IMG/VR virus record: IMGVR_UViG_2778261393_000002
Strand: one strand, 5' to 3'
DNA: 29,964 bases
Origin: a virus
Lineage: Duplodnaviria; Heunggongvirae; Uroviricota; Caudoviricetes
Shown here in pieces: positions 9,218-21,058 of this stretch. The translations under genes and the position numbers were made by a program. The first letter of the stretch is position 1, and the number at the start of each line of letters is the position of its first letter. Below the pieces are notes generated by a model. The model saw only the letters and a list, made by a program, of their open reading frames with translations. It did no database searches and was not told the DNA's origin.

Positions 9218-9370
9218 CTCTGACTGAGAGTTTACTCACTTAGCCGCGTGTCCACTATTGCTGGGTAAGATCAATTATCATCCACACAGGATAAAGACAT
9301 CTGACCAGATTGCAGTATTAAAAGCTCTCATGCAGACTACGCACCCCATATCATATACAAGGTTATACTG

Positions 9371-9781
9371 ATGGCTCAGGTTGCCCTTTTTAAAGAAATA
9401 TTTGATCAAGTGCGGAAAGATTTAAACTGTGACCGATTTTACTCTGAACTAAAACGTCACAATGTCTCACATTACATTTACTATTTAGCCACAGGTAATA
9501 TTCACGTTGTATTGAAAAATGATAACGCAGTGTTAATAAAAGGACTTGAGGAGGTTGTGAATGTTAAATTTCGCAGAGACACGCGACTTATAGAAACTTA
9601 CTCTCATAAGTTGAAATCAAGAGAAATCACATTTCATGAATACAGGGAAAATCTGGCTAAGGCTGGAGTTTTCCGATGGGTTACAAATGTCCATGAACAC
9701 AAAAGGTATTACTATACCTTTGACAACTCATTATTGTTTACCGAAAGCATTCAGAACACGACACAATTTTTTCCACGCTAA
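9371..9781 (+). CDS. DUF1398 / YbcV-like prophage protein
   Basis: 136 aa ([47 protein letters not shown] ...) closely resembles DLP12 YbcV as recalled. Upstream of and co-oriented with bor. Confidence 0.7.
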
Positions 9782-10005
9782 ACCATATCGCCCGGTTTAA
9801 TCCCCCTCACTATCCGGCACTCCCACACAGGAGTTACCAGTCGGTACTGAGGACATAGTTAATCCGGGAATACAATGAAAATACAGCACATCTGGCATAC
9901 TTTAATAAACATTAAAAATATGAGATTTCAACTCATTGTTTAGGTTTTGTTTAAATTTCTACAAATACGATTCAACAACCTTAAAAACACAACGGGAATA
10001 ACACT

Positions 10006-10299
10006 ATGAAAAAAACGCTACTCACTTTCACGCTGGCCCTGCTTATCTCTGGATGTGCTCAACAGACGTTTACTGTTGAAAACCAACCGACAACAGTAAC
10101 ACCGAAGGAAACCATCACTCATCATTTCTTCGTTTCTGGAATTGGTCAGAAGAAAACTGTCGATGCAGCCAAAATTTGTGGTGGCGCAGAAAAAGTTGTT
10201 AAGACTGAAACCCAGCAAACATTCGTAAATGGATTGCTCGGTTTTATCACTTTCGGCATTTATACTCCGCTGGAAGCTCGGGTATATTGCTCACAATAA
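10006..10299 (+). CDS. bor: Bor lipoprotein (serum-resistance lipoprotein)
   Basis: 97 aa with signal peptide and lipobox LISGC. Sequence near-identical to lambda Bor/BorD as recalled. Convergent with the lysis genes as in lambda. Confidence 0.85.
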   Translation: MKKTLLTFTLALLISGCAQQTFTVENQPTTVTPKETITHHFFVSGIGQKKTVDAAKICGGAEKVVKTETQQTFVNGLLGFITFGIYTPLEARVYCSQ

Positions 10300-10307
10300 T
10301 ATCATAA

Positions 10308-16656: not shown

Positions 16657-16812
16657 TTACTCCTCAGGTTCGTAAGCTGTGAAGACAGCGACCTCCGTCT
16701 GGCCGGTTCGGATTCGTACCTCGCAGAGGTCTTTCCTCGTTACCAGTGCCGTCACAATGACGGTTAAACAGATGACGATCAGGGCGATTAACATCGCCTT
16801 TTGCTGCTTCAT
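16657..16812 (-). CDS. hokD: Hok/Gef-family type I toxin
   Basis: 51 aa MKQQKAMLIALIVICLTVIVTALVTRKDLCEVRIRTGQTEVAVFTAYEPEE with AAGGAG SD, matching HokD/RelF as recalled. An overlapping upstream frame (to 16869) is the mok-like reading frame. Confidence 0.85.
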   Translation of the reverse strand: MKQQKAMLIALIVICLTVIVTALVTRKDLCEVRIRTGQTEVAVFTAYEPEE

Positions 16813-17023
16813 AGCCTGCTTCTCCTTGCCTTTCGGCACGTAAGAGGCTAACCTAGATTTGCCGTTCATAGATTGAGCCTCAGATTAATGTTAAGCGTCT
16901 TGCAGGACGCGTAATGTTAACTGGGGCTTTTCTCTATCTGCCTTTGGTGTTCATGCCTGAGACAGATAGCCTCAAGCACCCGCAGCCATTCTACTTAACT
17001 CCCGTTACCTCGCCAATATAAAA

Positions 17024-17113: not shown

Positions 17114-17399
17114 GACAACCTCCTGTATTGGACGTACACCAGTCCTGATAAATATGAGGCTGTCTCATCATTGATGAGATACAACTATTGGGTATAGTTT
17201 CTGTGATTTTGTTCTGTAGAAATGGAACACAACAACCAGTCACCACCAGCACTTCTTTAAATACGCCAAGTCCGACGCAAGCTAACCTTCTAGTCCGCTT
17301 TGAGCGAGAAGCGGGCCTTTCGACAACCATATTTAGATGAATAGTGGGCTAGGAATACTTTAGCAATTACATTGCTAATATCAATATAAGTAGTAGATT

Positions 17400-17433
17400 C
17401 AAAAAAAATAAGCCACCTAAAAAGCATGGCTTA
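17400..17433 (-). terminator. Rho-independent terminator ending the AT-rich cargo cassette
   Basis: Stem TAAGCCA (17409-17415) and TGGCTTA (17427-17433), followed on the minus strand by an 8-nt U-run (plus-strand A-run 17401-17408). 13 nt after the stop of the 417-aa ORF. Confidence 0.6.
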
Positions 17434-17445
17434 ATTGCAAATAAA

Positions 17446-18699
17446 TTACATTTTATCAATTTCAGAAATGATCCTATCAATTTCATCAATGCTTGCTTGA
17501 ATTGTTAGATTATTTTTTATTATCTCAAGTAATTCTATTGCTCTTCTTTTGGGCCTTGATGACACCAGTTCTGAATTTGCTCTTTCATTCTCCACGAACA
17601 ACCGTGAGAGAGCCATCAATTGATTACTATTTAACACATCTAAAAATGGTTGAAGTACTAAATGTGCATCAGATCTTCCCCAGTAATTCCCCACCCAAAC
17701 AGTAAGTATTTCTTGATATACATCTTCAAATGCAATAGATGGAACATGAGGTCCAAATTGTATAAGTGCCTTGGCTGCTCTTTCTTCATCATTCCAGCCG
17801 TAAGATGTATCCTTAGCTTTAGCTAGCTGTTTAACCGCATGTCTGTATAAACTTGCCCTAGCAGCATCAGGTATAAATTTCACACCATTAACTTTTACTA
17901 AAGTCTCTAAAATTCTTATTTTTGCTCCTTTATCCTCACTTGTATCCGATTCGGGCTCCAGCATAAATGAGTGATATCTTTCCCCCGCTGTTTTTTTAAG
18001 GTCATCATTAGATCTTTCCCATGCTTGTTCAAACAACTTGCTAGCATTAACATAAGCAGGATTTTCCCCCTTAGTTATTAAATCCAATAAAAATCCAAAT
18101 GTTATTCTTATATCAGCTTGCTTAAATGCTCTTATTTGATCTTTAAGTAAGTCTATGCTCTCAATTGATAGTTCAGATTTTTTTATGGGTTCAAATAATC
18201 CAGATGGCGAATGTCCAGGGTCTGGCATATCAGATTCGAATAAATTCTTCTGGAGCATAAGAGCCAAAGCAAACACATCCTCAGACTCTACTTTACTATC
18301 ACTTGCATGGGCTGGAGAGGCATGGTTTCTCATCCAATTGATCATTTCTAATGATTTTCCAGCTTTCTTATGCAGAACCCCTAATTTGGTGGCTCCACTT
18401 ATTAGCACTAAATCATCTACACCTGACCATCTCTCGTTTATTGTTTCACCATCTTTATCATATTTTTTACGACCACTATCATCCTTTATTGCGGAAAGGA
18501 ATAAGTCTAAACCATAAGCCTCAATTCGCCGCCTAAGATTATGAATGGATGCATTCCATATATCTAAAAGAGCATGATCAGGGAAGCCAGAATCTAACAA
18601 CTTTCTAGCTTGCGAAAGGAATTCTATTTCAGTATTAACTGTTGCAGGAAAATTAGTTGTTGATGGCGAGCTTAATAAAACCGGGAGATTTTTTGACAT
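17446..18699 (-). CDS. Hypothetical protein, 417 aa (cargo gene B, candidate defence effector)
   Basis: Long uninterrupted ORF in an AT-rich segment with SD AAGGAAA upstream. No family recognised. Contains an R-x6-H motif (MRNHASPAH) of the kind seen in HEPN RNases. Confidence 0.8.
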   Translation of the reverse strand: MSKNLPVLLSSPSTTNFPATVNTEIEFLSQARKLLDSGFPDHALLDIWNASIHNLRRRIEAYGLDLFLSAIKDDSGRKKYDKDGETINERWSGVDDLVLISGATKLGVLHKKAGKSLEMINWMRNHASPAHASDSKVESEDVFALALMLQKNLFESDMPDPGHSPSGLFEPIKKSELSIESIDLLKDQIRAFKQADIRITFGFLLDLITKGENPAYVNASKLFEQAWERSNDDLKKTAGERYHSFMLEPESDTSEDKGAKIRILETLVKVNGVKFIPDAARASLYRHAVKQLAKAKDTSYGWNDEERAAKALIQFGPHVPSIAFEDVYQEILTVWVGNYWGRSDAHLVLQPFLDVLNSNQLMALSRLFVENERANSELVSSRPKRRAIELLEIIKNNLTIQASIDEIDRIISEIDKM

Positions 18700-19312
18700 T
18701 GAATTTCCTTTAAGTAAAAATTATAATCTATGTCTTTGTGAACAAATTTACACGATATTGTAACCTTGCAGGTGCAAGAAGTAGTGTTCAAATAAATACG
18801 TGAAGAGAAAAAATCCGCCATGACAAAGCTATACACTATTCCCAATTCTTAAAAAATTCAATATGTTTAAAAAATTAATTTTCAAAACTAGCATCCTAAT
18901 ACTCTAAACACACCTATATACAACTAAGGATATGAACAGTATCCTTTTATAGAAGGAGTCTGATCCCTACAGATTTAGAGATTTTAATGTTTGTTAACTT
19001 CCGCCTATGACACAGAGGTGCTGTTGCAGCCCTAAAAACCTTATGTTTTGTTCAAGTCAGAGCTATACGACGCATCGTCGAATTCAATGCCCAAGCAACG
19101 GATTGTGCTTGCCAGTTTCTTATGGTTCAACAGAGGTTCAATGATTAGTATGCTGTAAAGCAAATCTTCGAGACAAAACTTCTCTACCCCCCATGAAAAA
19201 TTTCGGTTGAATTGCCTGGGTGATGTGTGCCGGATAGCTCCAACTCGAGACTGAAGCATGAAGTCTTTACTATGAAAATTAGCAGACTGTATACGCAGCC
19301 TGCTAGTTTATG

Positions 19313-20434
19313 TTAGAGCTTATAAAGTTCAATTAATCTGGATTTTTCTCTGTCAAATTCTTCATCAAGATTTGAGAAGTCTGGAAGTGTAACCATTAAA
19401 TCCTTAAGTTGATGAATAACATTCCAGACATCGTAATGAATAAAGGGATTTAAGCCAATTACATTCCCCTCATCATTATTTTTAGATTTCCCTACACCAC
19501 ACAATTTGATGAATTTGTTGATTGCAGTTGTTTCATTCCAGTCCGAGACAAAAAGAAGCAAGGCAGATACAGCCAAAAGGGGGTTATTTTTTTTAACAGC
19601 GGATATACCCCTGATTTTCCTAAAAAGAAATTCGTGATGCCTGGTTATTTTTTGTGCAACTCTTATCGTTGCTTCATATTTTTCTTTAAGCAACCTTCTA
19701 TCATAAACCTGATAACCTCGATCTCGTGCTACTAATCGATGTGCTTGTTTAGTAAATGTGGTACTATTCACAAGATTATAGAAAACAGAATTATTTTCAT
19801 TAGTCATGTCGATCATCAATGATGGATATTTGAATCTTAACGAACGATACACTTCATCGTTTATATCAAACCAGGATTTATTTTTCCTCTCTTCATCTAC
19901 AATATATTTACTTTCTCCCTTACGGGAATACATGCTGGCCCTTATTAGATTGATCATGTGAGGGCTATAGTTAACAGAAAAAGTGCCTGACTGGCGTAAT
20001 TCTGTAAACCATTGCCGCATGTTTCGAATATCTTCCTGATTGAACTCATCATGTTCAATACCTCTACATACAAGCTCGCGAATTATACTTGTAATCTCAG
20101 AACCTGAGGTGCCGAATTTTATAAAACCATCCCTTGATGAATCTATTTGCTTATCATTACCACTGTAATGATCGCAAAATACTTTGTGTGCATCAGTTCC
20201 GTCTTTTGTTCTAAACGAAAAATGAGATTGGCTGACTATCTTATTTGTTCTTTTCGAATAACCTTCTGAAACAACAATCGCACCGCTTACATTGCAAATT
20301 GGGCACTCTGCATCAAAGGCAACAAATTCCTTGAAATCACTGAAATTGAGTGCGTTATCTGATGAGTAATGGTTTAACAATTGAACCATGTCCAATTCCT
20401 TTTTGAATGTACGAGAATAGACCGTAATTGCCAT
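19313..20434 (-). CDS. Hypothetical protein, 373 aa (cargo gene A)
   Basis: Start taken at MAITVYS (codon 20432-20434) with SD AAGGGAG 7 nt upstream. No family recognised. N-terminal Cys/His cluster (ECPICNVSG ... HKVFCDHY). Confidence 0.8.
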   Translation of the reverse strand: MAITVYSRTFKKELDMVQLLNHYSSDNALNFSDFKEFVAFDAECPICNVSGAIVVSEGYSKRTNKIVSQSHFSFRTKDGTDAHKVFCDHYSGNDKQIDSSRDGFIKFGTSGSEITSIIRELVCRGIEHDEFNQEDIRNMRQWFTELRQSGTFSVNYSPHMINLIRASMYSRKGESKYIVDEERKNKSWFDINDEVYRSLRFKYPSLMIDMTNENNSVFYNLVNSTTFTKQAHRLVARDRGYQVYDRRLLKEKYEATIRVAQKITRHHEFLFRKIRGISAVKKNNPLLAVSALLLFVSDWNETTAINKFIKLCGVGKSKNNDEGNVIGLNPFIHYDVWNVIHQLKDLMVTLPDFSNLDEEFDREKSRLIELYKL

Positions 20435-20635
20435 TTGAACTCCCTTCATCATAATTTTGGTTGTATGAAATATTATCGCATAAAGATACTAATGAGCCAG
20501 TAATATAACTAGAAACGACTTTTTGTGGTTCAGCGAACTAGACGTCCGCTCCTGGCACAAAGCGGACAACCACGCTAGCTCTACCCTGTGCCACAAAATG
20601 TCAATTTGCATCTGAACTAATGCACTTTAATCTCG

Positions 20636-21058
20636 TCACTTCAATAAATACCGAACATCACCCTGATAAAACGACAATATGCGCTGCATAACTTCACTCT
20701 TCCGGCACTCGCGACAGATTATGTTCTGACGCCTGTCGTAGCGACGTATTTCTCCGTCAGGTAATGACCAGATAAGGTCCGGATCAACCGCAGATGGTTT
20801 CTTCAGCTTTGCCCTTGAGAGCTTTTTACGGGCATTTTGCCAGTCCTTACGCGCCTGTTCAGACGGGAATAACCCGTAACCAGAGTTGTATACATCGCCG
20901 CTGGCAACCAGCTCTCTTGCGAGAACGCTCATCAGATATCTTGTCGCACCTGTCTTGACTTCCAGTTGCCGTAACGTCTCACGCCCACTCTGGCGTACGA
21001 GTTCAACAACCTGTCCTTTAATTTTTTCCCGCTCTTCTTGTGTAAAAACTTTTGCCAC
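20636..21058 (-). CDS. Hypothetical prophage protein, 140 aa
   Basis: Basic protein with a C-terminal CxxC-like segment (IICRECRK), immediately downstream of the replication gene. Family not recognised. Confidence 0.55.
   Translation of the reverse strand: MAKVFTQEEREKIKGQVVELVRQSGRETLRQLEVKTGATRYLMSVLARELVASGDVYNSGYGLFPSEQARKDWQNARKKLSRAKLKKPSAVDPDLIWSLPDGEIRRYDRRQNIICRECRKSEVMQRILSFYQGDVRYLLK

Follow-up and report, generated by a model that had tools for sequence, protein, structure and literature searches.

HEPN domains as a rule act as dimeric RNases independent of metal, and many of them serve as abortive-infection effectors (as cited in PMC13092281 and PMC13043305). Two prophage defences made of one HEPN protein each have been characterised, HepS and Tha. 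HepS, a protein of about 205 amino acids (aa) from the Gifsy-1 prophage of Salmonella, consists of a single HEPN domain with an R100-x4-H105 motif; its tetramer is opened by the phage tail-tip protein J and then cuts tRNA anticodon loops (Sargen et al., Nature 2026; PMC13043305). Of the Tha proteins of Staphylococcus aureus prophages (Tha-1 and Tha-2), Tha-1 has 301 aa, with its HEPN domain (R265-x4-H270) at the C-terminus and an N-terminal part that is unstructured; Tha is triggered by a minor tail protein and degrades RNA non-specifically (Nat Microbiol 2024; PMC11087260). The toxins of HEPN/MNT pairs (HepT/MntA; PDB 5yep, 8xdj and 7ae2) have about 130 aa and are neutralised by an adjacent MNT nucleotidyltransferase. 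The present analysis concerns two open reading frames, ORF-A (417 aa) and ORF-B (373 aa), which lie on the same strand of a lambdoid E. coli prophage sequence of 29,964 nucleotides (IMG/VR record IMGVR_UViG_2778261393_000002), hereafter called the window.

ORF-A and ORF-B are independent genes. A total of 119 loci were fetched, and tblastn with both proteins over 106 of them found the two together only where both were at least 99% identical to the window. On balance, the locus probably combines two mutually independent cargo modules of one gene each, which were gained horizontally and came to be stacked in a hairpin-bordered slot, with ORF-A as a self-contained HEPN abortive-infection RNase and ORF-B as a separate immunity-related gene. 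The RNase activity, the sensor role of the ORF-A C-terminal domain and an anti-phage phenotype of either gene are what we infer from the comparisons given below, and the coordinates of all features are collected in Table 1.

ORF-A and the described HEPN proteins

The AlphaFold2 model of ORF-A was confident and all-helical, with a predicted local distance difference test score (pLDDT) of 87.9. The model and the Rx6H motif together placed an N-terminal HEPN domain at residues ~20-155, where the chain forms the four-helix up-and-down bundle of ~110-130 residues that characterises the HEPN fold. The R124-N-H-A-S-P-x-H131 motif, which follows the R-x4-6-H pattern of HEPN domains, was invariant in 39 ORF-A homologues, and the longer block E118-M-x-N-W-M-R-N-H-A-S-P-x-H131 was invariant save for its two x positions (mean column identity 68%). 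The motif lies at the end of helix 111-126, at ~77% of the domain length, which agrees only roughly with the placement that we presume for known HEPN toxins. The residual ~260 residues formed a well-predicted helical-repeat domain with a weak alpha-solenoid resemblance to PDB entries. From the model and the motif, ORF-A is assigned to the HEPN proteins and is predicted to be an RNase.

ORF-A founds a family that is not described in Pfam, NCBIfam or PADLOC, and its architecture is new. The first-pass annotation had recognised no phage, toxin-antitoxin or defence family for either protein, and the searches agreed: both proteins gave zero matches at E<=1 in Pfam, NCBIfam and PADLOC-DB v2.0.0, and each matched only a PHROGs family of unknown function. 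Foldseek with the ORF-A model against the full PDB gave no significant match (best E 0.018); the matches were helical-repeat look-alikes, with no full-length counterpart. The RefSeq accessions and PHROG identifiers of ORF-A and ORF-B were not mentioned in the papers and supplements searched.

The close ORF-A family contained more than 435 clusters. Among the members listed, nearly all had exactly 417 aa, identity to ORF-A was 57-94%, and the precomputed Pfam annotation was empty for 120 of 120; the named hosts included Providencia, Vibrio, Photobacterium, Acinetobacter, Burkholderia, Pseudomonas, Cyanobium and Lentisphaerota. An exhaustive profile search returned 420 superfamily representatives at 50% clustering. 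Among them was a distant clade of ~475-aa proteins that aligned with ORF-A over its whole length; it numbers more than 1,500 members, and its named hosts include Streptomyces, Micromonospora, Stigmatella and Rhizobium. The close family and this clade are found in Proteobacteria, Actinobacteria, Cyanobacteria and Myxococcota. Since the HEPN and C-terminal domains are co-conserved over the full length across the superfamily, they evolve as one unit. Of the 120 members of the ~475-aa clade that were listed, 119 had no precomputed Pfam annotation and one carried PF27235; all named members were called "hypothetical" except one that a single source called VapD. Fifteen of the distant relatives searched against PADLOC shared no family, and no model for the clade was found. 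Four distant relatives that lack the motif (P0348, P0355, P0360 and P0374) keep the full-length architecture and may be catalytically dead paralogues.

HepS resembles ORF-A as a single prophage HEPN protein without an antitoxin partner, carried as cargo of a lambda-like (Siphoviridae) prophage, and its inactivity until a phage protein binds, followed by RNase action, is the mechanism proposed here for ORF-A. The two differ in size, motif spacing and architecture, and the ORF-A family profile matched nothing at E<1 among all PDB sequences, in which the HepS entries are assumed to be included. By the published descriptions, ORF-A is set apart from Tha by its N-terminal HEPN domain, its well-predicted helical-repeat partner domain and a different host phylum. 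Unlike HepT, ORF-A has a large fused domain, and neither a conserved neighbour nor an adjoining nucleotidyltransferase (MNT) gene was present in the contexts examined. ORF-A is placed outside the HepS, Tha and HepT families, from which it differs in size, domain order and motif spacing; no sequence relation to a solved structure was detected. The HEPN systems named in the DefensePredictor text (e.g. DS-11, CBS+HEPN) were considered as kin of ORF-A and set aside, as they have other architectures.

In the proposed mechanism, the C-terminal helical-repeat domain of ORF-A would hold the N-terminal HEPN domain inactive, and the sensing of a phage cue would lift this inhibition. A HEPN dimer built around R124/H131 would then cleave RNA (tRNA or rRNA), and this cleavage would stop phage growth. 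Self-inhibition and activation by a phage cue are suggested because ORF-A has no conserved antitoxin neighbour and no RNA antitoxin signature. A type III RNA antitoxin of the ToxIN/AbiF kind in the spacer between the two genes was rejected: the spacer holds no tandem repeats, the spacer and cassette match no Rfam family, and other ORF-A loci have upstream gaps down to 44 bp. If ORF-A does defend, a widespread new architecture would join the small set of one-protein HEPN abortive-infection systems. It pairs HEPN with a well-folded, highly conserved, sensor-like domain, and its trigger could be mapped.

ORF-B and its immediate neighbours

A 379-aa reading of ORF-B from position 20452 is possible; the start at 20434 is favoured because of the homologue alignment (conserved N-terminus M-x-I-T) and an AAGGGAG Shine-Dalgarno sequence. 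The model was confident (pLDDT 89.4, predicted template modelling score 0.86) and showed an N-terminal domain rich in beta structure that holds a C-C-H-C site, followed by three helices in a UBA-like bundle and by a helical domain at the C-terminus. The residues C44, C47, H83 and C87, which form a CxxC...HxxxC pattern of the zinc-ribbon or treble-clef type, did not vary among 52 sequences, the most distant of which had 25% identity. The other invariant residues were T4, S7, E13, Q18, F72, F74, R140, A288 and L294, together with the G323/G327/N329/P330 motif (GNxxGxNPF) in the helical domain. A total of 107 homologues were found, down to 25% identity, and a scan of genome contigs widened the family to Alpha-, Beta- and Gammaproteobacteria and Cyanobacteria. 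When 52 relatives were searched, no Pfam or NCBIfam family was found and PADLOC gave only three single-member matches (E 0.002-0.009); the family profile matched nothing at E<1 among all PDB sequences, and no whole-fold PDB match was obtained. From these conserved residues, ORF-B is predicted to be a zinc-binding protein, and its fold was unrecognised.

By cluster counting, at least 23 of 83 ORF-B loci had a PADLOC-recognised gene as immediate neighbour. These included GajB (6-7 loci), GajA (4 loci), PDC-S02, a DUF1016-like nuclease by eye (3 loci), FRG-domain PDC-S15 located exactly 20 bp downstream (4 related loci), a LmuB-like (Lamassu-like) ATPase (2 loci), SIR2 PDC-S25 (1 locus) and a 2TM-SAVED effector (1 locus), while DUF4365 stood one gene further away in 3 loci. 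The neighbours were very heterogeneous, and no universal partner was seen. This defence-island setting supports, by guilt by association, an immunity-related role for ORF-B, and does not indicate a mechanism. ORF-B is thus a possible lead to an immune mechanism without a recognisable enzyme domain. A bolder version of the account, which we put forward as doubtful, is that ORF-B founds a stand-alone immune family with a novel fold and mechanism and that ORF-A is a further new immune gene in its own right, namely a HEPN RNase equipped with a new sensor domain, with both having entered lambda-like prophages through an exchange slot bordered by hairpins.

The same neighbours bear on another explanation, that ORF-B is an accessory (a regulator or sensor) shared by many defence systems and not itself an effector, in which case it might control ORF-A in trans. 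BrxR/CapW-type regulators are the model for such a role. The ORF-B homologues lie on the same strand and 0-90 bp from GajA, GajB, PDC-S02, FRG, SIR2 and the 2TM-SAVED effector, the zinc site and the three-helix bundle with conserved R137, R140 and Q133 could, judging from the model, bind nucleic acid, and the protein has no enzymatic domain. This explanation is nevertheless unlikely, as ~70% of the ORF-B loci have no recognised defence neighbour and no neighbour family occurred in more than ~7 of 116 immediate neighbours. PDC-S15, PDC-S25 and PDC-S02 bear the PADLOC "S" label, which we take to mean single-gene candidate systems. Neither a helix-turn-helix (HTH) nor a regulator family was detected in ORF-B, and, at 373 aa and with three conserved domains, the protein is big for a mere regulator.

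Two recurring arrangements were observed among the ORF-B homologues. In viral contigs L020-L023 (e.g. L020 1-1119 and 1139-2089), homologues with 55-57% identity are followed after 20 bp by a same-strand FRG gene, whose product matches Pfam PF08867 and the PADLOC candidate PDC-S15 (E 5e-105); this pair is tight within a single lineage and might form a genuine two-gene unit. Four alphaproteobacterial loci, L065, L066, L070 and L101 (e.g. L066 5167-5940, 6001-7020 and 7170-8333), share a three-gene layout with a 257-aa protein or the PDC-S02 nuclease upstream, the ORF-B homologue, and a 387-aa "RNDFLHG" protein 23 bp downstream. The 257-aa and 387-aa neighbours had no Pfam or PADLOC match. The 387-aa protein was considered as a recurring HEPN partner of ORF-B and rejected for want of evidence (hhalign probability 0.1% against ORF-A).

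Joint and separate occurrence of the two genes

Outside the near-identical copies, ORF-A was found alone. The homologue with 94% identity lies at an integrative island's edge (22 contigs, with four contexts of insertion shown), the one with 83% identity lies beside a TIR-fragment gene, and the one with 73% identity follows a DUF1367 gene in a Photobacterium lambdoid prophage. At 63% identity, ORF-A was found in Lentisphaerota 44 bp after the hsdR gene of a type I restriction-modification (R-M) system, with an integrase adjoining, and at 61% in a Burkholderia island with H-NS and UvrD_C_2+DUF2290 genes. The remaining contexts were prophages of P. viridiflava (59% identity; Prim-Pol and holin genes on either side) and Cyanobium (57% identity; portal-like and terminase-like genes on either side). 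In the other direction, ORF-A was absent from ~80 diverged ORF-B loci, which were taken partly from 22 viral and 68 genome contigs and partly from several targeted look-ups.

The DNA between the genes also speaks against co-transcription: the gap measures 613 bp, ORF-B is immediately followed by a strong hairpin, and debris of an integrase gene is present. An ORF-B copy with 90% nucleotide identity (SF-468, Serratia Ag1) is followed by the same debris and then by a DUF4365 nuclease-like gene instead of ORF-A; the integrase fragment of strain SF-468 matched Pfam Phage_integrase (E 4e-11). A 72-aa ORF in the spacer (19041..19259) had no Pfam match and was treated as integrase debris, not as a gene. 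The first-pass annotation had read ORF-A and ORF-B as one cassette closed by a strong terminator after ORF-A. That unity did not hold, since the pair exists only in near-identical copies and the two genes end in separate terminators, with integrase debris in between. The stem-loop after ORF-A (8+2-bp stem, z-score only -1.4) and its U8 tract are present, the latter being the main support for a terminator; the stronger terminator of ORF-B had gone unnoticed in that annotation. As the genes are separate in diverged loci and integrase debris lies in the spacer, stepwise accretion of two single-gene modules is the simplest reading. Proximity in recent E. coli copies says little by itself about operon membership, and reading the locus as two stacked single genes instead of a two-gene system alters which constructs deserve cloning.

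Several observations weigh against two stacked modules with immune roles, and some of them favour other explanations. The whole A+B block travels as one unit: it was found in 13 of 5,426 complete E. coli genomes with 99.6-99.8% identity, spacer included, and in three settings, namely the lambdoid slot, a Qin-like prophage beside hokD, and a tRNA-Ser island, where it adjoins a VbhA-family antitoxin gene and a DUF2254 gene. As a unit, however, the block is very recent. This block movement, the shared strand and the operon-like position of some ORF-B homologues 1-50 bp from effector-like genes (FRG, SIR2 and the 387-aa RNDFLHG protein) are what a real two-gene system has in its favour, with ORF-B as sensor, regulator or antitoxin and ORF-A as the HEPN effector. 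Such a system is very improbable in view of the solitary ORF-A in all diverged contexts from 94% to 57% identity, the ~80 ORF-B loci without ORF-A nearby, the terminator that closes ORF-B ahead of the debris, the DUF4365 gene in the place of ORF-A, and the lack of relation between ORF-A and the 387-aa neighbour.

For ORF-A, the empty Pfam and NCBIfam searches place it in no curated HEPN family, and the PADLOC search was empty as well. The motif MRNhASAAHP is kept in most of 27 distant relatives, but the R/H motif is gone in 4. A lone toxic RNase without an antitoxin also calls for tight autoinhibition, an assumption of the present model. For a sensor, ORF-A is conserved to an unusual degree, with 57-94% identity and a fixed length of 417 aa across several phyla; going by the alignments, this suggests a conserved trigger or target, or equally a non-defence role. 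For ORF-B, no effector domain was recognisable, and the gene also occurs on an IncFII plasmid and on large phage- or plasmid-like contigs beside methyltransferases, which would fit an anti-defence or regulatory role as well.

Some of these points would also fit service to the mobile element itself, where one or both genes act as a host-takeover RNase, in superinfection exclusion, in anti-defence or in another form of lysogenic conversion. Phages, plasmids and islands carry both genes, both proteins are in PHROGs, the very high conservation of ORF-A is unlike that of fast-evolving immune sensors, and some ~100-kb viral contigs have ORF-B next to a gene of 567 aa that by eye resembles a DNA methyltransferase. 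We regard this explanation as decidedly unlikely, because ORF-A directly follows a chromosomal type I R-M operon and also occurs in islands with defence genes, ORF-B lies beside Gabija and further defence genes in numerous genome assemblies, and the same slot of the prophage is occupied in relatives by PD-T7-3 and by a toxin-antitoxin pair. Two stacked single-gene modules thus remain the favoured reading.

The cargo slot and its border stem-loops

The slot between the replication module and hok/sok is a cargo hotspot. The variable segment was delimited against a locus in which the same flanks surround other cargo. The segment has a guanine-cytosine (GC) content of 35.5% versus 47.7% in the remainder of the window, and all 406 equal-sized windows outside it had a GC content of at least 44.3% (mean 47.7%, standard deviation 1.7). 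The GC content at third codon positions was 0.25 in ORF-A and 0.31 in ORF-B versus 0.49-0.55 in neighbouring prophage genes. These calculations bore out an AT-rich segment that the first-pass annotation had judged by eye. Its two long minus-strand ORFs were intact at the positions claimed, its placement of the segment between replication module and hok was correct, and its statement on relBE in the Qin prophage of K-12 was confirmed, with relBE directly upstream of hokD. The ideas of foreign AT-rich cargo in a variable slot and of a hotspot for toxin-antitoxin and defence genes were likewise upheld, as the same flanks hold other cargo in related prophages, PD-T7-3 among them in other E. coli.

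Table 1. Coordinates of the features in the window and of the border pairs in other loci (the latter in the numbering of each locus)
Feature	Position	Strand	Remarks
hokD toxin gene	16657-16812	-	Conserved neighbour, downstream side
sok antisense RNA region	16807-16981	-	Conserved neighbour, downstream side
Left border, one arm of 35-nt imperfect inverted repeat	17280..17314	.	Stem-loop GTCCGCTT-N8-AAGCGGGC; flank homology ends here
Variable segment	17315-20541		Between conserved flanks
ORF-A intrinsic terminator	17400..17433	-	Stem-loop then U8; -9.9 kcal/mol
ORF-A, 417 aa, predicted HEPN + helical-repeat domain	17446..18699	-	RefSeq WP_000042049.1 "hypothetical protein"
ORF-A C-terminal all-helical domain, residues ~165-417	17449..18207	-	Presumed sensor/autoinhibitory; pLDDT mostly >88
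ORF-A predicted HEPN domain (approximate)	18235..18642	-	
Invariant motif E-M-I-N-W-M-R124-N-H-A-S-P-A-H131 (Rx6H)	18307..18348	-	Presumed catalytic; coordinates verified
Intergenic spacer	18700..19312	.	613 bp
Tyrosine-recombinase (integrase) gene debris	18997..19280	-	75-79% identical to integrase fragments beside ORF-B homologues elsewhere
ORF-B terminator hairpin	19280..19305	-	10-bp stem; -15.4 kcal/mol, z -4.95
ORF-B, 373 aa	19313..20434	-	Closest RefSeq WP_072651455.1, WP_001018849.1 (99.5-99.7% identical), "hypothetical protein"
C44-x2-C47 to H83-x3-C87, presumed zinc site	20174..20305	-	Four residues invariant in 52 homologues
Right border, other arm	20546..20580	.	Stem-loop GTCCGCT-N10-AGCGGAC
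DUF977/LygF-family gene	20636..21058	-	Last of replication module; conserved neighbour, upstream side
Border pair, L001 (strain 2012EL-2448)	9024-9058/14842-14876		
Border pair, L002 (Combat13F7)	5081-5115/6947-6981		
Border pair, L004	7989-8023/11256-11290		
Border pair, L111	2581-2615/4014-4048		
Border pair, L112	2581-2615/4397-4431		

The two border arms of 35 nt are 77% complementary, and across loci the element measures ~24-35 nt with the general stem GTCCGCT(T)/(A)AGCGGRC. Apart from the two copies at the borders, the window had no occurrence of the inner 22 nt (0 expected by chance), and all alternative cargos diverge immediately inside both stem-loops. The A+B block of the tRNA-Ser island keeps the inner ~22 nt of both borders with different outer flanks, and its border copies carry a matching single-base change in each arm. 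The border hairpins may mark a hairpin-targeted cargo-exchange site, or they may be just conserved terminator-like flanks. By means of the two conserved stem-loops, more cargo genes could easily be harvested from E. coli genomes with the slot flanks, of which there are many.

In E. coli Combat13F7 and relatives, the slot holds PD-T7-3 (PD-T7 series; PADLOC PDLC04108), represented by two ORFs that match one PADLOC model (E 1e-93 and 2e-49). Like ORF-A and ORF-B, PD-T7-3 is single-gene cargo within the same slot and border stem-loops; it is unrelated to them in sequence, as neither matches the PADLOC model. The relBE genes of Qin are toxin-antitoxin cargo at the equivalent position and also have no sequence relation to ORF-A or ORF-B, and the K-12 locus lacks the two border stem-loops. 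The slot contained an acetyltransferase and a regulator in phage Evi, a 444-aa hypothetical protein in phage Tritos, and A+B plus three more genes in the Qin-like prophage of strain 2012EL-2448. An empty slot with abutting border arms was not found, the shortest fillings being ~235 bp in strain A20 and ~960 bp, unannotated, in the second prophage of strain M1.

Within the Combat13F7 slot (L002 5281-6648), the ORFs of 99 aa and 318 aa correspond to the N- and C-terminal parts of the 432-position model, and PD-T7-3 is probably split there by a frameshift or stop because two ORFs cover one model. The filling in the second prophage of M1 (L114 4255-5205) may hide a small unannotated cargo gene. 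The extra genes of 2012EL-2448, located from ORF-B to the right hairpin (L001 12330-14658), encode a 200-aa integrase fragment, an HTH regulator and a short-chain dehydrogenase/reductase oxidoreductase, and they show further cargo accretion in the same slot.

A second AT-rich dip was present at positions 9250-10300 of the window (GC ~0.36-0.40). The RefSeq annotation of 99.9% identical DNA showed a DUF1398 (YdfO-like) gene and a Bor-family lipoprotein gene in this dip; they adjoin an IS3 element and a GH108 lysozyme gene and are ordinary lambdoid accessory genes.

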